Shown: piece after piece, positions 5,116-21,160 of the stretch
Position numbering within the stretch: position 1 is the stretch's first letter
How the letters are laid out: the number at the start of each line of letters is the position of its first letter
Source of the DNA: an uncultured Chloroflexia bacterium
GTDB taxonomy: Bacteria; Chloroflexota; Limnocylindria; QHBO01
Assembly (NCBI GenBank): GCA_963767985.1
Contig: CAVYGE010000002.1
Span: 169,211-233,210 of the forward strand
Direction: 5' to 3'
Length of the DNA: 64,000 nt
Position numbers and translations under genes: made by a program
Notes under the pieces: model-generated
Told to the model about the DNA's origin: nothing
The model's database searches: none
Seen by the model: the letters and a program-made list of their open reading frames with translations, nothing else

Positions 5116-5119
<4 letters not shown>

Positions 5120-6477
5120 TCCGGACCCCCGATCGCCGCGAGCATGGAGGCGGCCTTGGCTGCGACCTCCGCCGCCTCGCGGTCCGGGATCGAGTCGGCC
5201 ACGATGCCGGCCCCCGCATGCACGGTCGCCACGCCGTCGCGGATGAGGGCCGAGCGGATGGTGATGGCGCACTCGACGTCGGTCGGGCTGAAGTAGCCAA
5301 CGGCCCCGCCGTACGGGCCGCGCTTCTCGTCCTCGAGCTCCGCGATGGCCTGCATGGCCCGGACCTTGGGGGCGCCGCTCACCGTCCCGGCCGGGAACAC
5401 CGCGCGAACCGCGTCGAAGGCATCGAGCCCGTCGGCCAGGCGGCCGTGGACCTCGGACACGATGTGCATGACATGCGCGTAGCGTTCGACGTCGCGCAGG
5501 GTGGTGACCTCGACGCTGGCCGTGGTCGCGACGCGCCCGACGTCGTTGCGTGCCAGGTCGACGAGCATGGCGTGCTCCGCCAGCTCCTTGGGATCGGCCC
5601 GCAGCTCCGCCTCGAGAGCCGCGTCCGCGACGGGGTCCTCGTCACGGCGCCGGGTGCCCGCGATCGGCCGCGTCACGACCTGGCCGTCCCGGACCCGGAC
5701 CAGCAGCTCCGGCGATGCGCCGACCACGGCGGCACCGGGAGAGACGACGCTGAGGTCCAGGTAGTAGAGGTAGGGGGACGGGTTGACGCGTCGCAGGGAG
5801 CGGTAGATGTCGAGCGCGGTGCGATCGGTCGGAACGGAAAAGCGGCGCGCCAGCACCGTCTGCAGCATCTCTCCGGCGTGGATCTCCTCGACCAGCCGTG
5901 CCACGCCTCGCTCGTAGCGGTCCCGCGCATCGGGGTCGGTCTCGGGGGGCACGACGGCCGCGGGAAACTGGAGCGGAACCTCACCGGGCGCCGGCGTGCC
6001 CAGCGCCGCTGCGACATCCTCGAGTCGCTCGGGGGCGCCGGGGCCATCCAGCGTGGCGACGCGCGCGACCTGGGCGAGGTGGTCGAAGATGATGACCACC
6101 GACGGGATGTGGAAGACGGCGTCCGGCATGCCGAGCGGGTCGGCGGCAACGGCCGGAAGGCGCTCCCAGTGCGCCGTGGCCTCGTAGGCAAGGTAGCCGA
6201 CTCCCGACGCGAGCGGGAATCCCGGGTCGCCGGCGGACGCCGTGACGGACGGCAGCTCGCCGCGCAGGACCTCGAGCGGGTCGCCGTCCTCGGGCCGCAC
6301 GACCAGCGTTCTGCCATGCACGCCGGCGATCGAGTAGCGACCGTAGCGCGCGCCGCCCTCGACGCTCTCGAGCAGGAAGGCGCAGCGGGAGCCGAGGCGC
6401 AGCGCCGCAGCGACGGGGGTCAGCGTGTCGGCGGCGAGTTCGATGCTCGTGACGCGGGCGGGGGTCGCGATGGTCAT
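5116..6477 (-). CDS. trpE: Anthranilate synthase component I
   Basis: FLLESVEGG (Trp feedback site), NPSPYLY, GASPELLV, RPIAGT, EHAMLVDLARND, FPAGTVSGAPK, RGPYGGAVGY; upstream Trp T-box. Confidence 0.9.
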
Positions 6478-6499
6478 TGGGTCCTGCTCTGGTGGGAAC

Positions 6500-6533
6500 G
6501 ACAAAGCCTCCATCCGGATCAGGGACGGAGGCT
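6500..6533 (-). terminator. T-box intrinsic terminator
   Basis: AGCCTCCGTCC-loop-GGATGGAGGCT followed by TTGT; overlaps the 3' arm of the antiterminator. Confidence 0.8.
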
Positions 6534-6782
6534 CTCTTCCGCGGTGCCACCCTTGGTTCGGACCCGGGCGGGTCCGCGCTCATTCGGGCCGATGTTAACG
6601 GGGCCCAGCCCGTCGCCGCCTAATGTGTTCGGAGCCGAGGAGTATTACCGTATATACCCACCGCCGAAACACCTCGGAGCGAGGCTCGCGGGTCCATTCA
6701 CGCTCGTCGTGCCATGCCGGCTCGCACCATCCCGGCTCGCTCCCATGGCCGTGCGATCGCTACTCGTCCCAATCGTCGCCAT
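6500..6782 (-). promoter_or_regulatory. T-box riboswitch with Trp (UGG) specifier
   Basis: Minus strand: kink-turn GGCGACGA, AGTA loop, GGTGCGAG distal loop, GAA-TGG-A specifier, CCGTTA stem IIA/B, stem III CGGACCCG/CGGGTCCG, T-box AAGGGTGGCACCGCGG. Confidence 0.92.
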
Positions 6783-6798
6783 CTGAAGTTGGAGCCGC

Positions 6799-7161: not shown

Positions 7162-9934
7162 GTGCCCCGATCGACCGCCGCCGAGACCGCCCGCCGAGCC
7201 GAGCCCAAGGGCATCGGCAGTGCCCATGCGCGGGACCCGCTGGCCCGCGAGGTCAAGCTCGTCGGCGCGCTCCTTGGGCAGGTCATCGTCGAGCAGGAGG
7301 GGGCGCAGCGCTTCGAGCTGATCGAGCAGCTGCGCAGGGCCGCCATCCGCCGCCGAGCGGGGGCGACTGACGACGCCTCGCATCTCGACGACCTCCAGAC
7401 AGCGATCCGCGGCCACGGCACCGACGACCTCCTCGCCGCCGCCCGTGCCTTCACCGCCTACTTCCTGCTCATCAACCTCGCCGAGGAGAAGCACCGCGTG
7501 CGATCCCTCCGCCAGCGAGAGCGGTCGAGCACCCGCGACGGGCTGCCCGAGAGCATCGCCGACGCCGTCTCGCGTCTCGCGCGCGCCGAGACCTCGACCG
7601 CCGAGATGCGCGACATGCTGGACGGGCTGCTGCTGCGCCCGGTGCTCACCGCCCATCCGACCGAGGCTCGGCGCCGGACGGTGCTCGTCGCACAGCGCCG
7701 CCTCTACGCACTGCTCGACCGCTTCGACGATCCGCGGCTCACCCGGACCGAGGACGCCGACCTGCGACGGCGGCTGCGCGAGGAGATCAGCATCCTGTGG
7801 CAGACGAGCCACGCGCGGACCCAGCGGCCCAGCCCGCTCGACGAGGTTCGGGCCGCCATGGTCTTCTTCGACCAGACGATCTTTCGCGCCATTCCCCGCC
7901 TGTATCGCGCTCTCGACGCGGCTCTCGTCGACCGTGGACGCGCGAGCCCCGGCAGCGGCGCCCGCCGGCCCGCGGCCCCGGCCTACGTGCGCTGGGGCTC
8001 GTGGATCGGCGGCGATCGCGACGGACACCCCGGCGTCACGTCCGAGACGACACGCGCCACGCTGCGCATCCAGGCCGATCACGTCCTTCACGGCTACCGG
8101 AACGTCGCCGACCGCCTCCAGCAGACGATCGCCGTGGGTGATGACCGCGCCGCACTGCCGGCCGACTACGCGCGTCGCATCGCTCGCGACCGGCGGGCAC
8201 TTCCGGAGCTGCGGGCCAGCCTCGATCGACGGTTCCCCCACCAGCCGTACCGGCAGGCGTTCGGGATCATCGGCGAGCGGATCGAACGGACACGCACCCG
8301 GCTCACGGGACGCCGGGGACCGCGTCGCCACGGCTACGGCTCGCCATCGGAGCTGCTGGATGACCTGCGCGCGATGCAGGCCGCACTCGTCAGCCACGGC
8401 GCGGATCGGGTCGCGTGGGGCGAGGTGCAGGACTTCGTGTGGCAGGTCGAGACCTTCGGATTCCACCTCGCCGCCCTCGAGGTTCGACAGCACGCGGACG
8501 TCCATGCCGCCGCGCTGGAGCGAGTCCGCGGAGAAGGCGATCCAGGCGAACCCCTGTCGGGCAGTGGCACGACCGCGGACGAGGTGCTCGCCACCCTCCG
8601 CGTGATCCGGGAGATCCACGCGAGCTTCGGCCCCGAGGCACTCCCCCGCCATGTCGTGAGCTTCACGCGAACGGCCGCCGACGTGACGAACCTCCTGGCG
8701 CTCGATGCCATCGCGTCGCCGAACGCCGAGCCGCTGGACCTGGACCTCGTCCCGCTCCTGGAGTCGCGTGACGCCCTGACCGGCGCGCGCGACCTGCTGC
8801 GCAGCCTGCTCACCGACCCCGTCTATCGGCCTCACCTCGTGCGTCGCGGGATGCGCCAGGAGGTGATGCTCGGCTACTCGGACTCGAACAAGGAGAGCGG
8901 CTATCTCGCGGCGGCCTGGAGCCTGTACCGCGCCCAGGAGGAGCTGGTGGCCGTGGCGCGGGAGGAGGGCGTCGAGCTCACGCTGTTCCACGGCCGCGGC
9001 GGGACGATCGGCCGCGGCGGCGGCCCGGCCAACCGCGCGGTGCTGGCCCAGGCCGGCGGCTCGGTCGACGGGCGGCTCGCACTGACCGAGCAGGGCGAGG
9101 TGATCGCCGAGCGATACCCGAGCCCGGTGATCGCGCAGCGCCATCTCGAGCAGCTCACCAACGCGGTCCTGCTCGCCAGCCGCGCCGATCACGCCGCCGA
9201 GACGGCGGTCCAGGCAGAACGCTGGCGCGCGCTGATGGACGAACTCGTCCGGCCTCGCGGAGCGGGCGTATCGGCGGCTCGTCTGGGAGGACCCGGAGTT
9301 CGAGGCGTACTTCCACGCGGCCACCCCGATCGACGAGATCAGCCGCATGGAGCTCGGCTCGCGGCCGGCCAAGCGCGGCAGCACCGGGGCGCCGCCCGGC
9401 CTCGAGCAGCTGCGGGCCATCCCGTGGGTCTTCTCCTGGTCGCAGAGCCGCACGAACCTGCCAGCCTGGTTCGGCGTGGGGGCCGCGCTGACGGCCTACG
9501 CGGAGGACCGTGCCGATGGGCGTGACCGCCTGGCGGCCGCGTACCGTGAGTGGGCCTTCTTCCGCTCGGTCATCGACAACGTCGAGCTCGGTCTGGCCCT
9601 CGCCGATCCGATCCTGGCGGCTCGCTACGCCAGCCTGGCCGGCGACTCCCCGCCGATGCGGCACATCGCCGATGCGATCGAGCAGGAGCGCATCCGGACC
9701 CTGGACGAGCTGATGAGAATCACCGGACGCAGCGAGATCCTCGAGGGCAGCCCCCGATTCCGGCGCAGCGTCGAGCTGCGGACGCCATACGTCGACGTCC
9801 TGAGCGAGCTCCAGGTGCTCGCGCTTGAGCGATTGCGCGGCGGCTCCCTGTCCGTCACGGAGCGCACCTCGGCAGAGCAGCTGCTCCAGCTCACCGTGGG
9901 AGGGGTCGCGGCCGGACTCCAGCACACCGGTTGA
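7162..9934 (+). CDS. ppc: Phosphoenolpyruvate carboxylase (frameshift ~9250)
   Basis: VLTAHPTE, WIGGDRDG, QEVMLGYSDSNK, FHGRGGTIGRGGGP, TEQGE, LRAIPWVFSWSQ, AAGLQHTG C-terminus. Confidence 0.93.
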
Positions 9935-9959
9935 CCCGATCCGTCACGATGTCGCGGCC

Positions 9960-10670
9960 ATGACCGACCGTCCACGGACCGCGATCATCACCGGCGCCGC
10001 CGCCGGCATCGGCCGCGCGACCGCCACCCTGCTGGCGACCGATGGCTGGCGCGTGGTCGGCGTCGACCGGTCGAACGGCGACGGCGTGGACATCGCTGGC
10101 GACGCGGGTGATCCGGCTGTCCTGGCCGATGCGCTGGCTCGCTGCGATGGCTCGCTCGACGCGCTGATCTGCTCTGCCGGCATCCCGCCGTCGGGGCCGT
10201 GGGACAGCCGCGAGCACTGGGACGAGGTGCTGCGCGTCGATCTCTCCGCCCCGTACGAGGCGCTGCGCGTCTGCTGGCCCGCGCTCGTTTCTGCCGGCGG
10301 ATCGGCGGTGCTCGTCGGAAGCATCGTCGGGGCGGCCGAGGGCTCGCTCCGTTCCCCCGCCTACGCGGCCGCCAAGGCCGGGATCGAAGGGTTGGCGCGC
10401 TCGTTCGCGGTCATCGGCGCGGCCGATGGCGTGCGCGTCAACGTCGTGGCGCCCGGCGCCATTGCCACCGACTTCGACGAGCGGCTCCTCCCCGCCGACC
10501 ATCGGACCGACGTGCCGCTGGGACGGATGGGCACGGCGGAGGAGGTTGCCGGCGTCATCGGCTTCCTCGTCGGTCCGGCCGCCAGCTATGTGACCGGAGC
10601 GGTGTGGACGGTCGATGGTGGACGGAGCGTCCTCTCCTCGGCCGATGCGGCCCGCCTGCCGAGTGGTTGA
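9960..10670 (+). CDS. Short-chain dehydrogenase/reductase
   Basis: TGAAAGIG, YAAAK, VRVNVVAPG, VDGG. Confidence 0.88.
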   Translation: MTDRPRTAIITGAAAGIGRATATLLATDGWRVVGVDRSNGDGVDIAGDAGDPAVLADALARCDGSLDALICSAGIPPSGPWDSREHWDEVLRVDLSAPYEALRVCWPALVSAGGSAVLVGSIVGAAEGSLRSPAYAAAKAGIEGLARSFAVIGAADGVRVNVVAPGAIATDFDERLLPADHRTDVPLGRMGTAEEVAGVIGFLVGPAASYVTGAVWTVDGGRSVLSSADAARLPSG

Positions 10671-10696
10671 CACCGCGAGCACATCGGCCGTAGAGT
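10667..10696 (+). promoter_or_regulatory. Sigma70-type promoter of the shikimate operon
   Basis: TTGACA (10667-72), 18 nt, TAGAGT (10691-96). Confidence 0.75.
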
Positions 10697-10706
10697 CCGC
10701 GAACCA

Positions 10707-10733
10707 ATGAACAGCAAGTGGTTTTATGGCTAG
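10707..10733 (+). CDS. Attenuator leader peptide MNSKWFYG (Trp-Phe-Tyr)
   Basis: ATG AAC AGC AAG TGG TTT TAT GGC TAG, located between the promoter and an intrinsic terminator preceding the DAHP synthase gene. Confidence 0.8.
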
Positions 10734-10785
10734 CGGGTACGAGGCAGGCGAGTAGAACTCGCCGGCAGAGGCACTCGTGCCCGCA

Positions 10786-10820
10786 GACGCAGGAAGCGAA
10801 AGCTCCTGCGTTTTTTGTTT
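10786..10820 (+). terminator. Attenuator intrinsic terminator upstream of DAHP synthase
   Basis: ACGCAGG-A-AGC-GAAA-GCT-CCTGCGT hairpin followed by TTTTTGTTT. Confidence 0.88.
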
Positions 10821-10871
10821 CCCCGATGCGGGCCGGGGCGCGACGGCGCAACAACGAGAGGCGGCAACCGA

Positions 10872-12215
10872 ATGATCGTGGTGATGCGTCCGACGGCGAC
10901 GCGAGAGGAGATCGACGGCGTCAGACGCGCCGTGGAGGACAACGGGCTCGAGGCCTTCCTGAGCGAGGGCGAGGAGCGGACGGTCATCGGCGTCGTGGGC
11001 GATGTCGAGCGGGTCAACCACCTCGGCACGCTGCCCGGTGTCGACCAGGTCATCCGCGTCAGCTCCCCGTACAAGCTCGCCAGCATCCAGGAGCCCGGTG
11101 AACGGACCAGGGTGCGGGCCAACGGAACGGAGATCGGCCTGGGGCAGGAGCTGGTGGTCATGGCCGGCCCCTGCGCAGTCGAGTCGCGCGAGCAGCTGCT
11201 CGAGACGGCCCGATGCGTCGCACGGGAGGGCGCCCGCGTGCTGCGCGGCGGCGCCTTCAAGCCGCGCACCTCGCCGTACTCGTTCCAGGGCCTGGGCCTG
11301 CCGGCACTCAAGCTGCTTGCCGAAGCCCACGAGGAAACCGGCCTGCCGGTCATCAGCGAGGTCGTCGACCCCGCCGACGTGCCGATCTTCGAGGAGCACG
11401 TCGACATCCTCCAGGTCGGCGCCCGCAACATGCACAACTTCGTGCTCCTCAAGGCGGTCGGGCAGAGCCGCCGCCCCGTCCTCCTCAAGCGGGGCCTGTC
11501 CGCGACCATCGAGGAGTGGCTGCTCGCCGCCGAGTACATCCTGTCCGCCGGCAACCCGAACGTGATCCTGTGCGAGCGCGGCATCCGGACCTTCGAGACC
11601 GCCACCCGCAACACGCTCGACCTCTCGGCCGTGCCCGTGCTGCGCGAGCTGACCCACCTGCCGATCATCGTCGACCCGAGCCATGGGACCGGTCACCGAG
11701 CGCTGGTCGGACCGATGGCCCTGGCGGGCGCCGCCGTCGGTGCAGATGGCCTGATCATCGAGGTCCACCCTGATCCGGCCAACGCACGATCGGACGGTGA
11801 CCAGAGCCTGAGCTTCGACGAGTTCGGCGGCCTGATGGACGAGCTCCGACGCCTCCAGTTCGTGCGCGCGCCGGAGAGCCAGGCGGCGGTCACGGCAACG
11901 GCGGCGGCCGATGGCATCGACGACGTGCGCGATCGGATCGACGACCTCGACGCTCGCCTGGCCGGGATGGTCCAGGAGCGGGCGGCCCTGGCGCTCGAGG
12001 TGCAGCGACGCCGCGCGCCCGGCTCCCACGGCCACGATCCGCGACGCGAGCGCGCGCTGCTGGAGCGGGCGGCGAGCGGGACGACCGGGCCGATGACCCC
12101 CGTGGAGCTGACGCTCGTCTTCGACGCCCTGCTCCGCGCGTCGCGCTCGGTGCAGCGGCGTCACGCGCAGTCGGTCACCGAGGCCGAGGCGGCGACCGCC
12201 GGAAACGGCCGGTGA
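10872..12215 (+). CDS. aroF: Type I-beta DAHP synthase with N-terminal ACT-like domain and C-terminal AroQ chorismate mutase domain
   Basis: MIVVMRP...[11 protein letters not shown] (ACT-like), [45 protein letters not shown]; tail [15 protein letters not shown]...ER...DPRRE...ASRSVQ. Confidence 0.92.
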
Positions 12216-13499
12216 CGCCGGCGTCCACCGCCACCACCCTCCGACCCGCGGCTCGCCTCCGGGGGACGCTGACGCTGCCCCCGGACAAGTCGATCGCGCA
12301 CCGCGCCTTCATCTTCGCGGCCCTCTCCGGCGGCCCGTCGACGGTGACGATGGCCACGCCCGGACGAGACGTGCTGAGCACGATCACCTGCCTGCGTGAG
12401 CTCGGTGTCGAGATCGACGAGGCATCCCCGGGCCGATGGGAGATCCGCGGCCGGCCGATGCGTCACGCGACCCTCGACTGCGGCAACTCCGGCACCACGA
12501 TGCGGCTCCTGGCCGGGATGCTTGCCGGCCTCCCGCTGCGCGCCACCCTCGACGGCGACGCGTCGCTCCGCGCCCGACCGATGGAGCGCGTCGCGGAGCT
12601 GCTGCGCCGACACCGGGGCAGAGGTCGCGACCACCGACGGGCATGCGCCGATGACAATCGTTGGTCGCGCATCCCCCGCCCCTGCCGTGGTCGACATCAG
12701 CGTCTCCAGCGCGCAGCTGCTGGGCGCCTGCGCGCTCGCGGGCCTCGCGGCCACCGGTGAGACCCTGATCACGACCCCCGGACCGACCCGTGACCACACC
12801 GAGCGCATGCTGGCCTGGATGGGCGTACCGATCCGCCGCGCCGGTGGGACCACCACCCTCAGCGGGCCGGCGCGTCCGCGCCCCTTCGAGCTCGCGGTCC
12901 CCGGTGACCCTTCGGCGGCATCGGCGTGGCTGGTCGCCGCGGCGCTGCATCCCGACGCCGAGATCCGAATGGAGGACGTCGGTCTCAACCCGACGCGCCT
13001 GGCCCTGGTGGGGCTGCTGCAGCGCATGGGCGTCGAGATCGAGACGCGGATCACGGACGTGGCGGGGCCCGAGCCGATCGGGGAGATCGTGGTCCGCGGC
13101 GGCCGGCCGCTCGAGGCGGTGAACATCGGCGGCGCCCAGGTGGCCGAGCTCATCGACGAGCTGCCGCTGGTGGCCGTGGCCATGGCATCGGTGGCGGAGC
13201 CGTCCGAGCTGCACGACGCGTCGGAGCTGCGTGTGAAGGAGACGGATCGCATCGGCGCCATGGTGGAGGGCCTGCGTGCCATCGGCGCCAACGTGGAGGA
13301 GCTCGACGACGGCTGGCGGGTGAGCCGTGGCACACCGCGCGCGGGCGCCATCCGCACGCACGGCGACCATCGGATCGCGATCGCCTTCGCCGTGGCCGCC
13401 ACGGCGGGGATCGCGTCAGAGGTTGAGCTCGACGACGCGGACTGCGCGGCGGTCTCGTACCCGAGCTTCTGGGACGACCTCGCCGCGGTGACGCGCTGA
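12212..13499 (+). CDS. aroA: EPSP synthase (frameshift ~12605)
   Basis: [71 protein letters not shown]. Confidence 0.92.
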
Positions 13500-14698
13500 T
13501 GCGCCGCCTCCGCCTGCTGACCAGCGGCGAGTCACACGGCCCGGGGCTGTCCGGGATCCTCGAGGGCCTGCCCGCCGGCATGCGGGTGAGCACCCGGATC
13601 GTCGACCGCGACCTGAAGCGCCGCCAGCACGGCTACGGCAGCGGGAAGCGGATGCAGATCGAGCGCGACCGCGTGCAGTGGACGGCGGGCATCCGCTACG
13701 GGCGCACGCTCGGATCCCCCGTCGGCTTCAGCGTCGACAACCGCGACTGGGCGAACTGGACCGATCGCATGTCGGTCGAGCCGATCCCGGCGGATCGACG
13801 CCCCAAGCCGATCACCCGCGCGCGCCCCGGGCACATCGATCTCGCCGGCGCCCTGAAGTACGACACGGACGACGTGCGGAACGTGCTCGAGCGGGCATCG
13901 GCTCGGTCGACCACCCCGCGGGTCGTGGCGGGCAGCCTGGCTCGCCAGCTGCTCGCGACGTGCGGGGTGCGCATCTGGAGCTTCGTCGACCAGCTCGGGC
14001 CGGTCCGGGCGTTCCCCGACGCCGATGACGTCCTGGCCGCCATCCCCGACGGCTGGGCCGATCGCGACTTGGCCGATCCCTCCCCGCTTCGCTGCCCGGA
14101 CCCCGACGCGGAGCGTGCCATGCTCGCCGAAGTGGACGCGGCGAAGGAGGCCGGCGACTCGATCGGCGGCTCGTTCGTGGTCGTGGTCGAGGGCACGCCG
14201 ATCGGCCTGGGCTCGTCGTCCGAGTGGGACACCCGGCTCGACGGCCTGCTGGCCGGCGCGACGATGGCCATACCCGGCGTGAAGGGCGTCGAGATCGGGC
14301 TGGGGTTCGGGACCGTCGAGCGACGGGGCAGCGCGGTCCACGACGTCATCGATGCCGAGGAGGGCAGATGGCGGCGGCAGACGAATCGCGCCGGTGGGAT
14401 CGAGGGGGGCATCAGCAACGGCGAGCCGATCGTGGTCCGCGTCGCCCAGAAGCCGGTCTCGACCCTGCGCAGCCCGCTTCCGTCGCTCGACCTGACGACC
14501 GGCGAGAGCGGCCGCGCCCACATTGAGCGCAGCGACGTCACCGTCCTGGCGCGGGCGGCGATCGTGGGCGAGGCAATGGTGGCGCTGGTCCTCGCCGACG
14601 AGCTCCTCTTCTCGTTCGGGGGAGACTCCATCGGCGACCTGCGAGCGGCGGTGGCCCGCCGCCGGCGGCGGACGCGGGGACCGGGAGGGGCTCCGTGA
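13499..14698 (+). CDS. aroC: Chorismate synthase
   Basis: LTSGESHGP, RPGHIDL, ERASARST, GDSIGG, NRAGGIEGGISNG, KPVST, ERSD. Confidence 0.95.
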   Translation: MRRLRLLTSGESHGPGLSGILEGLPAGMRVSTRIVDRDLKRRQHGYGSGKRMQIERDRVQWTAGIRYGRTLGSPVGFSVDNRDWANWTDRMSVEPIPADRRPKPITRARPGHIDLAGALKYDTDDVRNVLERASARSTTPRVVAGSLARQLLATCGVRIWSFVDQLGPVRAFPDADDVLAAIPDGWADRDLADPSPLRCPDPDAERAMLAEVDAAKEAGDSIGGSFVVVVEGTPIGLGSSSEWDTRLDGLLAGATMAIPGVKGVEIGLGFGTVERRGSAVHDVIDAEEGRWRRQTNRAGGIEGGISNGEPIVVRVAQKPVSTLRSPLPSLDLTTGESGRAHIERSDVTVLARAAIVGEAMVALVLADELLFSFGGDSIGDLRAAVARRRRRTRGPGGAP

Positions 14699-15456
14699 CG
14701 GCCCTTGCCGTGCTCCTGGGCCAGGGCATCGGCTATTCGGCGTCTCCGGCCATGCACAACGCGGCGTTTGCCGCGCTCGGCGCCGACGCGCGATACGAGC
14801 TGCGCGACGTGGAGCTCCATGAGCTGGCAGCCGAGGTTGCCGCCCTGCGCGACGGCGATCGCATCGGCGCCAACATCACCCGCCCGTACAAGGTCACCGT
14901 CTGCGCCCTGGTCGACGAGCTGGGACCCGAGGTCAAGCGGCTCGGCGCGGCGAACACCATCGTGCGCTACGGCGACCGGTTGGTCGCCCACAACACCGAC
15001 CTCGCCGCCCTGCGCGGCGAGCTGCCCCCGGGAATCCGGCGCGCCGTCGTGCTCGGAGCCGGCGGCGCATCGCGGGCCGCGGTCGACGCGCTGGCCGCCA
15101 CCGGTTGCGAGGCGACCCTCGTCCTGGATCGCTCGCGCTGGGCCAACCTGCCGGGTGCGCTCGCCACGGCGGACCTCCTCATCAACGCGACGCCGGTGGG
15201 CACCGAATCCGACGAGACCCCGGTGCCGGCCTCGCTGCTTCGTCGCGAGATGGCGGTGCTCGACCTCGTGTACCGCCCGAGCCCGACGCGACTCGTGCGC
15301 GAGGCGCGTGCGGCAGGCGCGCGGGCGCGTGGCGGGGCCGGCATGCTGCTGCGCCAGGCGGCGCTCAGCTTCTCGATCTGGGCGGAGCGCGAGGCACCGA
15401 TCGACGCGATGCGCCAGGCGCTGCGCGCCGAGCTCGGACCCGGGGCCGATGTCTGA
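14695..15456 (+). CDS. aroE: Shikimate dehydrogenase
   Basis: SASPAMHN, GANITRPYK, AANT, HNTD, LGAGGASRA, INATPVG, DLVYRP, GMLLRQA. Confidence 0.92.
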   Translation: MTALAVLLGQGIGYSASPAMHNAAFAALGADARYELRDVELHELAAEVAALRDGDRIGANITRPYKVTVCALVDELGPEVKRLGAANTIVRYGDRLVAHNTDLAALRGELPPGIRRAVVLGAGGASRAAVDALAATGCEATLVLDRSRWANLPGALATADLLINATPVGTESDETPVPASLLRREMAVLDLVYRPSPTRLVREARAAGARARGGAGMLLRQAALSFSIWAEREAPIDAMRQALRAELGPGADV

Positions 15457-17019
15457 CGGCATGGGCGCGGGCGTCGTGCTCGTCGGCATGCCGGCAAGCG
15501 GCAAGTCCACGGTGGGGGCCGTGCTCGCCGAACGCCTCGGCGTCCCACACCTCGATACCGATGAGCTCGCCGCGCAGCGCATCGGCATGGCGGTGCCGGA
15601 GTACATCGAACGCCATGGCGAAGCCGCCTACCGCGTCGAGGAGTCCCGGGCGGTGCGCGCGGCATGCGCCACGCCCGGAGCCGTGATCTCGACCGGTGGG
15701 GGCGCCGTGCTCGACCCCCTCAACCGATGGGAGCTGTGGCACCACGGCACCGTGGCGTGGCTGGATCCCGAGGCGGCCGTGCTCCTCGCGCGACTCGAAG
15801 CCGATGGCGTCGCACGGCCGACCCTCCAGCCCTACGGCCCGGACCGCCTGGCCGCGGTGCGTGCTGAGCGCGCGCCCGTCTACCGCGCCGCGGATGTGCG
15901 GACCGACTCCACGCAGCCACCGGATGCGGTCGCCGACGAGGTCATCGCGGCAATGGGAGCCACACCCGCCCGGCGTCTGCTGGATGCCGAGGTGGAACGC
16001 CGCCACCCGATGGGGCCGCCGAGCGCGCGGATCGTGATGGGCGTGGACCTGGACGAGTCGCCCGGCGGCGTGGCGGTGGTGGATCGACGGCTGCTCGACC
16101 TGGCGCCTGACCTCGTGCGTCGCATCCGAGCGCGAGCACAATTGCCGCTGCGCGGTGGCGAGCGGACCAAGCGGCTCGGCTCACTCGAGCGCGTCCTGGA
16201 ATGGCTGGCGGCGCATCACGTGGAGCGCTCGACCTCGCTCGTCGCGGTCGGCGGGGGCACCATCGGCGACCTGGCGGGCACGGCGGCCGCGCTCTACGCG
16301 CGTGGCATCCCGCTGGTCCAGGTGCCCACGACGTGGTTGGCACAGGCGGACAGCGCCATCGGCGGCAAGGTGGCGATCGACCTGGGCTCCGCCAAGAATG
16401 CCGTGGGAGCCTTCTGGCCACCAGTGGCCGTCTACGCCGACGTGGGGGCGCTGCGCAGCCTGCCTCTCGCTCAGCGGCGGGACGGCATGGCCGAGTCGAT
16501 CAAGTCCGCGATGATCGGGGACCCGCTGCTGTGGGAGCTCATCGAGCGCCGCGGGGCCGGGGCGCTCCGCGCGGACGAGCCGGCGCGCTACGCCATCGTC
16601 GAGCGCAGTGCCCGCCTGAAGATCGGCGTCTGCGATCGCGATCCGTTCGAGACCGGGGAGCGCCGAACGCTGAACCTCGGCCACACCATCGGCCACGCGG
16701 TCGAGATCGAATCGGGTTACGGGCTGTCCCACGGCGCGGCCGTGGCGCTGGGGCTGCGCGCGGTGACCGCGATCGCGGCCGGTCGCGGCGCGGAATCCGA
16801 CGCTGCCCGACCGCCTCGATTCCCTGCTCGACGCCATGGGGTTCAGCCTGCGTCGCTCGTTCGACCCGGGCCGTCGTCCGCAGCGCCATGCTCGGCGACA
16901 AGAAGCGGCAGGCCGGGCGCCAGCGCTGGATCCTGCCGATGGAGATCGGGCGCGTGATCGAGGCCGACGACGTCACCGACTCCGAGGTGGAGGCCGCGCT
17001 GGCGGCGATCGCCGCGTGA
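15449..17019 (+). CDS. aroKB: Shikimate kinase / 3-dehydroquinate synthase fusion (frameshifts ~16800-16880)
   Basis: GMPASGKS P-loop, ISTGGG, RP.L, then GERTK, GGGTIGDLAG, VPTTWLAQADSAIGGK, KNAVGAF, LNLGHTIGHA, SHG.AVA, DKKR. Confidence 0.9.
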
Positions 17020-17870
17020 CGACCGTTGCCTACCAGGGCGAGCCGGGGGCGTTCGGCGAGGAGGCCGTCATCGGCTGGTTCGGGGATGACGCAACGCCGA
17101 TGCCGATGCCGACCTTCTCGGCGGTGTGCGCCGCCGTCGACGACGGCAGCGCCGATGCGGGCGTCCTGCCACTCGAGAACTCCCTGGCCGGCACGGTCGG
17201 CGACGCGCTCGATGCGCTGGCCGACGGCGACCTCCGGGTGGTCGGAGAGCTCCTGCTGCCGATTCGCCACCAGCTGCTGGTGCTGCCCGGCGTGCGGGTC
17301 GACGAGGTTCGACGCGTCAGCAGCCACTGGCAGGCGCTGGCGCAGTGCGAGCGATTCCTGGCGGACCGTTCGTGGGAGGTCGTCCCGGCTGCCGACACGG
17401 CCGGCGCGGCCCGCGAGCTCGCCAGCCGCGGAGAGCGAGGGGCGGCGGCGATCGCTTCGGCTCGCGCCGCCGAGCGCTACGGGCTTGAGATCGCGGCTCC
17501 CGACATCCAGGACGCGGCCCACAACATGACGCGCTTCGCCGTTCTTCGGCGAGAGGACGGTGATGGCATCGACCCGGCGGGCTCGCTTGCCCCACCGTCG
17601 GACGCCGCACGGGAGACGCTGATCACCTTCGAGACCGGCCACACGCCCGGCGACCTGTATCGCGCGCTGGGCTCCCTCGCCGATGCGGGGATCAACCTCA
17701 GCCGGATCGAGTCGCGGCCGTCGGGGAGCGGTCCGTGGCGCTACCGGTTCCTGGTCCAGGTCTCCGGCGACGCAGCCGCCGATCCCCTGGCGGCCGCCCT
17801 GCCGGGGCTGCGGCGGCACACCAGCTCGATGCGTGTGCTCGGTTCGTTCGGCGTGGCGGGAGGAGAATGA
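17016..17870 (+). CDS. pheA: Prephenate dehydratase with ACT domain
   Basis: VAYQGEPGAFGE, PLENSLAGTV, SHWQALAQC, NMTRF, NLSRIESRP. Confidence 0.93.
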   Translation: MTTVAYQGEPGAFGEEAVIGWFGDDATPMPMPTFSAVCAAVDDGSADAGVLPLENSLAGTVGDALDALADGDLRVVGELLLPIRHQLLVLPGVRVDEVRRVSSHWQALAQCERFLADRSWEVVPAADTAGAARELASRGERGAAAIASARAAERYGLEIAAPDIQDAAHNMTRFAVLRREDGDGIDPAGSLAPPSDAARETLITFETGHTPGDLYRALGSLADAGINLSRIESRPSGSGPWRYRFLVQVSGDAAADPLAAALPGLRRHTSSMRVLGSFGVAGGE

Positions 17871-17874
17871 GCCG

Positions 17875-18297
17875 ATGCGCATCCTCGTCCTGAACGGCCC
17901 GAACCTCGGCACGCTCGGCCGCCGTGAGCCGGAGATCTACGGCACGGCCACGCTCGACGAGATCGTCGAGTCGGCCCGAGCCCATGCGCTGGAGCGCGGC
18001 TCACTGCTCGATGCGTTCCAGTCGAACCACGAGGGCGCCCTCATCGATCGGCTCGAGCAGCTCGACTACGACGCGGTCATCTGCAACTTCGGCGCGCTGT
18101 CGCACACGTCGTATGCGCTCCATGACGCGCTGCGTGGATGTGGCCGCCCGGCGGTCGAGGTCCACATCAGCGACATCGCCGCCCGCGAGCCCTGGCGCCG
18201 GGTCTCGGTCACGGCACCGGCCACCGCGCACCAGGTCATCGGTCGGGGCTGGCGCGGCTACCTCGAGGCCATCGACTGGCTGCTCGAGTCCTCCTGA
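17875..18297 (+). CDS. aroQ: Type II 3-dehydroquinate dehydratase
   Basis: LNGPNLGTLGRREPEIYG, QSNHEG, HTSYALHDA, EVHIS. Confidence 0.93.
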   Translation: MRILVLNGPNLGTLGRREPEIYGTATLDEIVESARAHALERGSLLDAFQSNHEGALIDRLEQLDYDAVICNFGALSHTSYALHDALRGCGRPAVEVHISDIAAREPWRRVSVTAPATAHQVIGRGWRGYLEAIDWLLESS

Positions 18298-19101
18298 TCA
18301 ATCGGACGCGCCCCGACAGCTGCCCGGCGATCCCCGACCCGCCGAAGTTCCAGGGAGAGCCCGAACGTCGAGCTCATTGACTCGTCGGTCAGGACCTCGT
18401 CGATCGGACCGGCAGCAACGACGCGAGCATCGCGCATGAGCAGCGCATGGGTGAAGCCCGGCGGGATGTCCTCGACGCGATGGAGCACCACCACGACGGC
18501 GCCGATCGGTCCCGACGCGACGCGCGACAGGGTCGCCACCAGCGCCTCGCGGCCGCCGATGTCGAGCGAGGCCATCGGCTCGTCCAGGAGCAGCAGCGCC
18601 GGATCGGTGACCAGGGCACGGGCCAGCTGGATCGCGCAGCTGCTCGCCGGACGAGAAGGTCTCGATGGGCGCGTCGCGAGCGTCGGACATGCCGGCATCG
18701 GCGAGGGCGCGGATCGTGCGGTCCCGGTCGATGCGGCCCGGGTCGACGTACCACGGCAGCACGGCCCCGGCCTGCGCCGCGTCGACGATCTGGCGCGGCG
18801 TGAGCTCTGGAGGGACCATGGTCGCCAGCGACGGGCTCAGGTAGCCGATCCGGGGCCGCAATTCGGCGACATCCGTGCGCGCCAGCGGACTGCCGAGGAT
18901 CTCGACCGTTCCCGACGACGGCCGAAGATACGTGCTCGCGATCCGAACCAGCGTCGTCTTGCCCGCGCCGTTCGGACCGAGGACGACCCATCGCTCGCCC
19001 TCGCCGATCGTCCAGCTGACGTGCGAGACGATCTCGCGGCGCTGGCGGCGGACCGTGACGTCGCGCAGCTCGACGACGGACCCGCCGTTCGTCGGTGTGA
19101 T
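18258..19101 (-). CDS. ABC ATPase (ModF-like), frameshifted, start uncertain
   Basis: WVVLGPNGAGKTT, FSSGEQ, LLLLDEP, VLHRVEDIPPGFTHALL. Confidence 0.8.
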
Positions 19102-19111
19102 CGAGCGGCCC

Positions 19112-19731
19112 TCAGCCGGTGGTCGAGACGCGCGGCGGATGCGCCCGTTCGTACGCCTCGAGCGCCGGCTCCTGGGCCAGCAGGTACCCGAGCTCATCGG
19201 TCCCGTCCAGGATCATGCGACGCGCGAACGAGTCAACCGTGAAGCCGATGCGCCCGCCATCCGGCAGCCGGACCTCCTGCGCCTCGAGGTCGACCGTGAT
19301 CTCGGCATCCGGATCGTCCCGCACGATTGCCACGATGTGCCCGAGCTCCTCCGGCGAGACGGCGATCGGCAGCAGCCCGTTCTTCAGCGCGTTGTTGCGG
19401 AAGATGTCGGCGAAGCTGCTGCTGATGACCGCGCGGATGCCCCACGCGCCGAGGGCCCACGGCGCATGCTCGCGGGACGAGCCGCAGCCGAAGTTGTCGC
19501 CCACGACCAGCACGGACCGCCCCGCCATCTCGGGTCGGTTGATGACGAAGTCGGGGTTCGGCGAGCCATCGGCCAGGTAGCGCCAGTCGTGGAACAGCTG
19601 GTCGCCGAGGCCGGCGCGGTTGATCGTCTTCAGGAAGCGCGCCGGAATGATCTGGTCGGTGTCGATGTCGTTGCGGGGCAGCGGCACGACCGCCGAGGTC
19701 ACCGCGCGAACGGCTCGCGAACGGCGCTCAC
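19112..19731 (-). CDS. leuD: 3-isopropylmalate dehydratase small subunit (5' frameshift)
   Basis: [44 protein letters not shown]. Confidence 0.95.
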
Positions 19732-21160
19732 AGCAGCGCCCTCGGATCCGACAGCCGCCCGGTCACCGCCGATGCGACGGCGGTCAGCGGCGACGCCAGG
19801 AAGGTGCGACCGCCCTTGCCCTGCCGTGCCCTCGAAGTTGCGATTGCTGGTGCTGACGCTGTACTGGCCGGGGCTGAGCTGGTCGCCGTTCATGGCGATG
19901 CACATGCTGCAGCCCGGCCTCGCGCCACTCGGCGCCGGCGTCAGTGAAGACCTGCGACAGGCCCTCGTCCTCGGCCTGGCGCTTCACCTCGGTCGAGCCG
20001 GGGACCACCATCATCCGCACGCCATCGGCGACGTGGCGGCCTCGCAGCATGCGGGCCGCCTCGCGCAGGTCGCTGATGCGCGAGTTCGTGCACGACCCGA
20101 CGAAGACGACGTCGATCGGCTTGCCCAGGATCGGCTCGCCGGGGGTGAGGGCCATGTACTCGAGCGCGTGCTGGAGGGAGCTGCGCTGGTTCGCATCGGC
20201 GAGGCTGGCCGGGTCCGGGATGCGCTCGGTGATCGGGAAGCCCATGCCGGGGTTCGTGCCGTAGGTCACCATCGGCGTGAGCTCGCCGGCGTCGAAGGCG
20301 ATGCTGCGGTCGAAGGTCGCGCCCTCGTCGGTCGGCAGCCGGCGCCAGGCCTCGACCGCCGCGTCCCACGCCTCGCCCTGCGGCGCATGGGGTCGGCCGT
20401 GGACGTACTCGAAGGTGGTCTCGTCGGGGGCGATCAGCCCGGCCCGCGCCCCGCCCTCGATGCTCATGTTGCAGATCGTCATGCGGCCCTCCATGCCGAG
20501 CGCGCGGATCGCCGAGCCGCGGTACTCGAACACATGGCCGGTTCCGCCGCCGACGCCGATGCGCGACAGGAGCGACAGGATGATGTCCTTGGCGGTCACG
20601 CCGGGATGGAGCGTGCCGTCGACACGGACCTCGAACGTCTTCGGCCGGCGCTGGAGCAGCGTCTGGGTCGCCAGCACGTGCTCGACCTCGGTGGTGCCGA
20701 TGCCGAACGCCAGCGCCCCGAATGCCCCGTGAGTCGCCGTGTGCGAGTCGCCGCACACGATGGTCATGCCGGGCTGCGTCAGGCCCAGCTCCGGGCCGAT
20801 GACGTGGACGATCCCCTGGTGCGGCGAGCCGATGCCGTGGAGCGGCACGCCGAACTCGCGGCAGTTGTCCTCGAGGCGCTTCACCTGGGCCGCGGCGATC
20901 TCATCGGCGATCGGGAGGCTGCGGTCGGTGGTCGGGATCGAATGGTCGGCGGTGGCGACCGTCTGGCCGGGCCGTCGCACACGGAGGCCACGGTCGCGCA
21001 GCCCGTCGAAGGCCTGCGGGCTGGTGACCTCGTGGACGAGGTGCAGGTCGACGCCCAGGACGTCGGGGGCGCCGTCGGTCCCGGGCGCGACGACGTGGTC
21101 GTCCCAGATCTTCTCGACGATCGTGCGCGGGCGTGCGGAGTCGGGGCTGTGATCACTCAT
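19728..21160 (-). CDS. leuC: 3-isopropylmalate dehydratase large subunit (3' frameshifts)
   Basis: [55 protein letters not shown]. Confidence 0.95.

Follow-up and report, generated by a model that had tools for sequence, protein, structure and literature searches.

A 64,000-nucleotide stretch of DNA from an uncultured Chloroflexia bacterium (assembly GCA_963767985.1, contig CAVYGE010000002.1, positions 169,211 to 233,210 of the forward strand; the whole stretch is called the window here) carries, just upstream of a gene for DAHP synthase, a short leader that is probably a ribosome-read transcription attenuator of the shikimate operon. We put the probability of this reading, taken as a whole but without the clamp step discussed below, at about 0.72. 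Its core, that the leader is a sensor of aromatic amino acids read by the ribosome, is strongly supported by sequence comparison and is the only reading that fits all the data, because the aromatic codons appear to be selected as codons, in frame and at a fixed place before a terminator that precedes the genes of the common aromatic pathway. The parts of the leader are as follows, in window coordinates.

10667-10696, + strand: sigma-70-type promoter, with -35 box TTGACA at 10667-72, an 18-nt spacer and -10 box TAGAGT at 10691-96.
10707-10733, + strand: leader open reading frame (ORF), eight codons and stop, ATG AAC AGC AAG TGG TTT TAT GGC TAG.
10719-10727, + strand: sensor codons TGG TTT TAT (Trp, Phe, Tyr; codons 5-7), with 5 nt between the end of the run and the P1 helix.
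10733-10745, + strand: P1 helix, 5' strand; its first base is the G of the leader stop codon.
10747-10763, + strand: inner hairpin, inside P1, seen in the RNA fold and with compensatory changes in three homologues (L096, L093 and L003).
10771-10784, + strand: P1 helix, 3' strand, with A10773 bulged.
10786-10820, + strand: intrinsic terminator, with stem 10786-97/10802-12, a GAAA loop and a U6-G-U3 tail, 1-3 nt past P1.

Most of this anatomy had been read from the letters alone in the original prediction, and it holds: the promoter, the 10-nt gap from the -10 box to a leader ATG without a Shine-Dalgarno (SD) sequence and the Trp-Phe-Tyr ORF all check on the sequence, and RNA folding reproduced the helix (10733-43 with 10774-84), the inner hairpin and the terminator. 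Those are the P1 limits in the single-sequence fold; folding of the alignment adds the pairs 10744-10772 and 10745-10771, giving a P1 of 13 bp with A10773 bulged. The leader RNA folds at -74.6 kcal/mol (z -2.84), a value equalled by 1 of 200 shuffles. A scan of 9500-20000 returned the promoter as the sole sigma-70-like site, against a shuffle mean of 0.3, and genome-wide the terminator is among only 18 strong sites with a hairpin and T5 in 2.7 Mb. The leader ORF ends 53 nt upstream of the terminator. A small third hairpin (CCCC...GGGG) lies 3' of it at 10821-10838; many congeners have one there, with a different sequence. The DAHP synthase gene comes after the terminator, in the order predicted, although its position had to be corrected, the ATG being at 10872.

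The element is conserved as a unit. DNA matching 10660-10875 is found in 16 of 24 congeners; within the genus the 80-nt core of P1 and inner hairpin is near-invariant while the flanks diverge, and the internal-loop bases 10767-69 vary freely. A covariance model (R1), built on an alignment of 25 sequences (A1), finds exactly one copy in each of 60 of the 151 genomes of the class: matches occur in 41 of 44 genomes of one family, in 16 of 50 of a second and in none of the 49 of a third. The N-terminus of a DAHP synthase lies 22-111 nt downstream in 64 of 68 copies. The upstream neighbour gene varies between genomes, and the element stays with DAHP synthase. A second alignment (A2) holds 65 distinct copies; unpublished genomes (G006, G144 and G118) enter the congener and 151-genome tallies, and the 98-region tally given below, but were kept out of A1, A2 and the 68-, 65- and 56-copy counts.

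Each component recurs across these copies. Of 56 related copies, 49 have a -35 box with at most one mismatch and a TAnnnT -10 box at 17-18 nt spacing, and for 45 of them the distance from the end of the -10 box to the leader ATG is 9-13 nt. Because the -10 box lies so close to the ATG in the copies with a promoter pair, we infer that the mRNA is leaderless or near-leaderless, with a 5' untranslated region of some 2-6 nt that lacks an SD. In the alignment 98.9% of P1 cells are paired, and 3 of 11 pairs differ on both sides; P1 and the terminator are separated by 0-4 nt in 65/65 copies; and all 65 have the terminator, with tail fold energies of -13.9 to -22.4 kcal/mol.

Further evidence comes from the leader ORF itself. 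An in-frame start codon is present in 65 of 65 distinct copies (ATG in 61, GTG in 4), opening an ORF of 8-13 codons. Counting codons back from P1, an aromatic codon occupies position -1 in 65/65 copies, -2 in 58/65 and -3 in 65/65, in a host where aromatic codons make up 6.5% of the total genome-wide. The -1 codon, 5 nt short of P1, encodes Phe or Tyr in all 65 copies and Trp in none; in 55 of 56 ORFs the aromatic run ends exactly at this 5-nt distance. What is kept is the amino-acid class rather than the nucleotides. The runs include WFY, WYF, FYF, YFYF, FFFY, FWY, YWF and FWYY, with Y-x-F in one subgroup, and Trp, Phe and Tyr are all present in 23 of 56 ORFs. The congener ORFs inspected always read M-x-x-x-W-F-Y-(G/V)-stop, positions 2-4 varying and TAT and TAC interchanging; one homologue (L003) has the order swapped to W-Y-F, a distant genome whose enzyme is 65% identical has M-T-R-Y-W-Y-F-S, and M-x-x-x-F-Y-F-R-x-P-A was found on the same scaffold in other relatives. 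Length changes are of whole codons, inserted before the run and never within the 5-nt spacer, so that P1 starts at nt 27 or 30; counted from the start of P1, the stop codon is at -2, +7 or +10. Conservation of a short Trp/Phe/Tyr ORF in relatives, proposed earlier as a check on the window sequence, is thus borne out by aromatic codons kept as codons, through synonymous TAT/TAC changes, order swaps and whole-codon insertions and deletions.

Codon choice is position-dependent as well. Among the 65 copies, Phe is encoded by TTT in 55 of 56 cases at -1/-2, and by TTC in 51 of 51 at -3/-4. The suspicion that TTT and TAT are rare in this DNA was correct: in the 70% GC host genome TTT accounts for 473 of 11745 Phe codons (4%) and TAT for 1132 of 7440 Tyr codons.

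Short aromatic ORFs are not confined to this class. Upstream regions of 98 DAHP synthases, including one locus of an unpublished genome, yielded 48 with a short ORF having a run of at least three aromatic residues, compared with 5 on the reverse strand and 1-7 in ten shuffles; these 48 upstream ORFs (uORFs) are spread over many phyla, and Rfam has no family for them. At 15 loci the ORF ahead of the same type of DAHP synthase is longer, at 20-33 codons, and packed with Phe, Tyr and Trp; these loci lie in metagenome-assembled genomes (MAGs) labelled Syntrophales/Smithella, Bryobacteraceae, Terriglobia, Calditrichota, Anaerolineae, Rokubacteria and Gemmatimonadaceae.

No Rfam family reached its gathering score on the leader, and no curated leader family did so in the whole window or at 16 related loci. 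The Trp leader, Phe leader and other curated Rfam leader families gave no match up to E 10 in 9500-12500, and the T-box model gave none at 10667-10871. Atu_C8 (RF02502), which is probably the Agrobacterium trp attenuator, matched over its full length (model positions 1-122) at 32.6 bits and E 5.5e-4, below its gathering threshold of 50. A limited literature search returned no account of this element, nor of any aromatic leader in Chloroflexota.

Several points of the mechanism are inferred, namely where transcription starts, that the ORF is translated, that the ribosome stalls, which way the operon responds and the steric step, and they would fit together as follows. Transcription would start a few bases 5' of the AUG, and a ribosome would translate the eight-codon ORF. 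Shortage of charged tRNA for Trp, Phe or Tyr would make it wait at codons 5-7; with all three charged, it would run on to the UAG, the last base of which is the first of P1. The terminator would then either stop RNA polymerase, releasing an RNA of about 110 nt, or let it pass into DAHP synthase and seven more genes.

In the textbook scheme the position of the ribosome is conveyed by an antiterminator helix. There is no such helix here that is mutually exclusive with the terminator, apart from a weak candidate in the window copy only. In duplex-energy calculations on 60 sequences, P1 scored -22.9 kcal/mol against -10.7 for shuffled partners and the terminator -18.6 against -8.0, while the 3' strand of P1 was, if anything, less complementary to the two terminator arms than shuffled sequence (-6.6 versus -7.7, and -6.3 versus -8.4). 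No leader region was more complementary to a terminator arm than shuffled sequence; only P1 and the terminator exceeded their shuffles. The same test applied to Escherichia coli trpL scored its 2:3 pairing at -13.3 against -7.7, a value reached by 14 of 500 shuffles, and the same constrained fold recovered the trpL 2:3 antiterminator with a pairing probability of 0.62. Mean pairing probabilities of the terminator 5' arm in our element were 0.03-0.37; with the ribosome blocking up to P1 that arm was free (0.03). Constrained folds at six ribosome positions in 12 homologues always retained the terminator. Mutual information over the 60 sequences revealed no new helix, its signal being dominated by the split between two clades. 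The antiterminator first suggested for the window, GCAGG at 10744-48 competing for the terminator 3' arm, is likewise unsupported: two homologues (L097 and L003) do not have it, and it is only 5 bp long.

One further pairing was considered and rejected as a mechanism. In ribosome-free truncated transcripts the aromatic-codon stretch is predicted to pair with the terminator 5' arm (mean probability 0.68; above 0.5 in 58/65 copies). The gain varies between -0.7 and -12.9 kcal/mol, with just about -1 in the genus of the window, and the complementarity is no better than shuffled. The native synonymous codons rank at 0.475 among the alternatives and so do not favour the pairing. It was rejected also because a stalling ribosome is just what would abolish it.

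The missing antiterminator bears first on the best of the rival explanations, a classical 1:2/2:3/3:4 attenuator in which the stalled ribosome masks the 5' strand of P1 and the freed 10775-84 pairs with 10789-99 as a weak antiterminator. It is the accepted scheme for E. coli trpL, our control, and for Sinorhizobium meliloti trpL; and since the window copy allows a weak 2:3 hairpin, we regard the scheme as unlikely rather than discard it. When the first P1 bases are blocked, the truncated window transcript does fold into the 10775-84:10789-99 hairpin, and with 5 nt of P1 covered the terminator 5' arm pairs upstream with a probability of 0.48 in the window copy and above 0.5 in 13/65. The sub-threshold, full-length Atu_C8 match has a similar arrangement, its UGGUGG standing 3 nt ahead of the first long helix. 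But most copies lack the pairing, among them L093 and every member of the FYF group; over 60 sequences its energy, as given above, falls short of the shuffled value, and its mean probability is 0.23-0.37 against the 0.62 of the E. coli control. The geometry also fits badly: the aromatic run stops 5 nt short of P1 instead of lying within strand 1, which should let a stalled ribosome open no more than a few of the 13 GC-rich pairs (none when it stalls at Trp or Phe), and the stop codon never brings the ribosome near strand 2.

Within the attenuator reading that we prefer, a route needing no antiterminator RNA can be sketched, though we hold it only tentatively: a clamp, in which the 13-bp helix loops out 52 nt and the bulk of the ribosome blocks the terminator stem. 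The mRNA channel of the ribosome reaches about +11 from the P site, and work on the ribosomal helicase and on frameshift signals indicates that a helix can still stand at its entrance there. With the last aromatic codon in the A site, some 12 nt separate the start of P1 from the first base of the P site, and a ribosome stalled in this way should therefore leave P1 closed, a geometry opposite to that of trpL. Read-through is expected to rise on starvation, as is reported for the aroR leader described below, and P1 closed would therefore mean read-through and P1 open termination. A ribosome stalled on the aromatic codons would halt just short of P1, allowing it to close; once closed, P1 would bring the bulky ribosome, and its own rigid base, right up to the terminator stem, no more than a few bases from its foot, and that stem could not then be completed while inside RNA polymerase. 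A ribosome that has moved past the aromatic codons would cover the 5' strand of P1, leaving P1 open and its 3' strand a loose tether, and the terminator would form. The sole physical basis that we can offer is a steric block: the foot of the terminator stem has to form deep within the RNA exit channel of the polymerase, and P1 lies 0-4 nt away from it.

Several points weigh against the attenuator reading or parts of it. With the antiterminator absent, the textbook route of transduction is removed; on base pairing alone the terminator can form at every ribosome position; and the direction of regulation comes to rest on biological expectation and on aroR. We know of no precedent for the steric step. 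Trp is never the codon next to P1, and a Trp stall would put the ribosome 11 nt from P1, not 5. Nor does the presence of a codon prove it to be an input, since the Tyr codon of the C. glutamicum leader gave no response to Tyr. The compensatory changes in P1 stem essentially from one split between two clades, so the helix covariation looked for after the original prediction is there, but mostly as a single event. A simple consensus scan for terminators missed that at 10786-10820, whose stem has a bulged A. All the sequence evidence is drawn from MAGs, the host genome itself being a MAG 84% complete, and we know of no cultured relative of the host; the nearest named relatives are MAGs labelled Candidatus Limnocylindria or Chloroflexia. 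In contigs of four soil and ice metatranscriptomes, only the conserved coding parts of DAHP synthase within 10600-11400 were matched, by sequences of other organisms, and 10600-10842 was uncovered, which is evidence neither way.

Other explanations fare worse than the classical one. The terminated leader RNA of about 110 nt, perhaps together with its 8-residue peptide, might also act in trans, as is reported for rnTrpL and peTrpL of S. meliloti (PMC6614838); this is compatible with attenuation, and the invariance of the core within the genus does exceed the needs of a helix. We nevertheless judge it improbable: no target is known, none having been searched for, and a peptide of 8 residues, three of them (positions 2-4) variable, would hardly have a specific partner. 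Far more doubtful is that P1 and its inner hairpin form a riboswitch-like site for a protein or small ligand which controls the terminator, the ORF being incidental. The near-invariant core among diverging flanks would suit such a site, and a bound factor acting directly would need no antiterminator. Yet the ORF is there in 65/65 copies, its aromatic residues are kept while the nucleotides change (UGG, UUY and UAY interchanging), insertions and deletions are of whole codons with the stop kept in frame, the loop bases 10767-69 are free to vary and Rfam gave no match at gathering score. Least probable of all is that the hairpin and U-run merely terminate the upstream short-chain dehydrogenase gene (9825-10670), since although they lie 116 nt past its stop codon on the same strand, the promoter intervenes and the upstream neighbour differs among genomes while the element stays with DAHP synthase.

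Set against known systems, the principle of the sensor is not new, nor are mixed aromatic leaders before DAHP synthase. The thrL and ilv leaders are multivalent attenuators with mixed amino acids, and aroR, as described, mixes Phe and Tyr, so the assertion in the original prediction that ribosome-mediated attenuators use runs of a single amino acid does not hold. Its companion, that no characterised example of the design exists, is answered by aroR of C. glutamicum (Corynebacterium glutamicum; Phe-Tyr-Phe; Neshat et al. 2014), which precedes aroF and is described as attenuating through ribosome stalling (PMC11802643, PMC4046766), and by a uORF motif upstream of aroF in Acholeplasma (PMC8632094). 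The aroR leader is reported to respond to Phe limitation, and its Tyr codon to confer no Tyr response (PMC11802643). It shares with the leader in the window a short ORF and mixed aromatic codons before a DAHP synthase gene, and F-Y-F itself occurs in eight of the first relatives found here. The comparison, made by description alone, also brings out differences: as described, aroR lacks a Trp codon, while the leader here has 8-13 codons, is near-leaderless, fixes its run 5 nt before P1, has no detectable antiterminator and controls all the shikimate genes. The Acholeplasma motif, uORFC-13-1, carries a predicted uORF and resembles the leader here, by description, in having one or more Phe codons next to a terminator before DAHP synthase; it differs in having a ribosome-binding site and belonging to another phylum, and it was itself described from comparison only (PMC8632094).

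The trp and phe leaders provide the other comparisons. With E. coli trpL and pheL the element has in common codons for the end products, a rare synonymous codon at a critical place, and a helix of the 1:2 kind with an intrinsic terminator behind it, ahead of the first gene. In trpL, however, strand 1 contains the regulatory codons and strands 2 and 3 pair, as our control analysis recovered, whereas here the codons precede the helix, no 2:3 pairing is found and each amino acid has one codon rather than a run. S. meliloti rnTrpL, a leaderless trp attenuator RNA of about 110 nt with an SL1/SL3 layout, is similar in having a first stem-loop, then a terminator, with Trp codons just 5' of the first helix. 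Unlike the leader here, it has an antiterminator, SL2, and a WWW run (PMC6614838).

E. coli pyrBI and pyrE, which likewise have no antiterminator helix, offer a further comparison; there a nearby ribosome physically prevents the terminator hairpin from forming. In those systems, however, the ORF extends as far as the terminator or beyond its start, and the signal comes from pausing of the polymerase when UTP is low, whereas the ORF here ends well upstream and only P1 could bring the ribosome near. What is new, then, is the leaderless form with eight codons, one apiece for Trp, Phe and Tyr among them, together with its rigid spacing and the lack of an antiterminator.

The genes downstream of the leader are the following.

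10872-12215, + strand: DAHP synthase, a three-domain fusion (Pfam PF18152 at residues 1-64, PF00793 at 85-319, PF01817 at 352-429).
12212-18297, + strand: rest of the operon: EPSP synthase (two frames), chorismate synthase, shikimate dehydrogenase, shikimate kinase and dehydroquinate synthase, prephenate dehydratase, type II dehydroquinase.

The three domains of the first enzyme are an N-terminal ferredoxin-like (regulatory) domain, the catalytic barrel and a C-terminal type II chorismate mutase; past residue ~330 the protein is matched by its four closest relatives only. It leads an operon of eight genes, neighbours abutting or overlapping, in which Pfam identifies all seven shikimate steps together with chorismate mutase and prephenate dehydratase, in agreement with the prediction that the whole shikimate operon lies downstream. 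Down to 20000 the scan lists no second promoter-like site and no + strand terminator. Two of the frames deserve comment. EPSP synthase is split between 12212-12760 (Pfam profile positions 2-130) and 12396-13499 (133-417), which is either a frameshift or an assembly error in a gene of an essential pathway. Shikimate kinase and dehydroquinate synthase share one long frame, 14705-16957, and the C-terminal domain of the synthase matches just 104 of 144 profile positions; there may be a second frame problem near 16800.

Elsewhere in the same genome two other leaders were noticed. A T-box leader lies at 6518-6785 on the minus strand, upstream of a trpE-like gene (ORF 5116-6513, minus strand); the RF00230 model matches it over its full length at 75.5 bits (gathering 93; E 1.1e-16), and UGG aligns with the specifier codon. 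From this alignment it seems that the Trp branch is read through uncharged tRNA-Trp by a T-box 4 kb from the aromatic leader, and sensing of tRNA charge would therefore be in use in this genome. Another putative attenuator with a mini-ORF lies about 3 kb before the window (G000:C2:165925-166085; L100, 126-285), ahead of a gene resembling that for O-acetylhomoserine sulfhydrylase (metY-like). It has a promoter-like site, a near-leaderless ORF of 26 codons containing Met-Cys-Met, a long-range helix that ends right at the terminator, and the terminator itself, a strong one. The ORF is kept in 11 of 11 aligned congeners, a tally that takes in the unpublished genome G006, and the M-C-M in 10, with TGC and TGT interchanging; Rfam gave no match to this leader. 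A strict genome scan, promoter plus ATG, for leaderless mini-ORF attenuators turned up nothing else convincing.

For the bacteria concerned, the leader would mean that one element could read the charging of three tRNAs and control the whole common pathway of aromatic synthesis; if the reading is true, about a third of the copies would be three-input sensors for Trp, Phe and Tyr. The element represents a conserved RNA family absent from Rfam; a single copy is carried by each of 60 of the 151 genomes of the class, whose members are widespread, uncultured bacteria of soil and freshwater. Its missing antiterminator and rigid spacings of 5 nt and 0-4 nt suggest a coupling of ribosome to terminator beyond the textbook model, and the clamp, if true, would link translation to intrinsic termination in a new way. 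With promoter, eight codons, one helix and one terminator in about 150 nt, it offers a compact, testable model of such coupling, and its small size makes it a potential aromatic-amino-acid-responsive switch for engineering.

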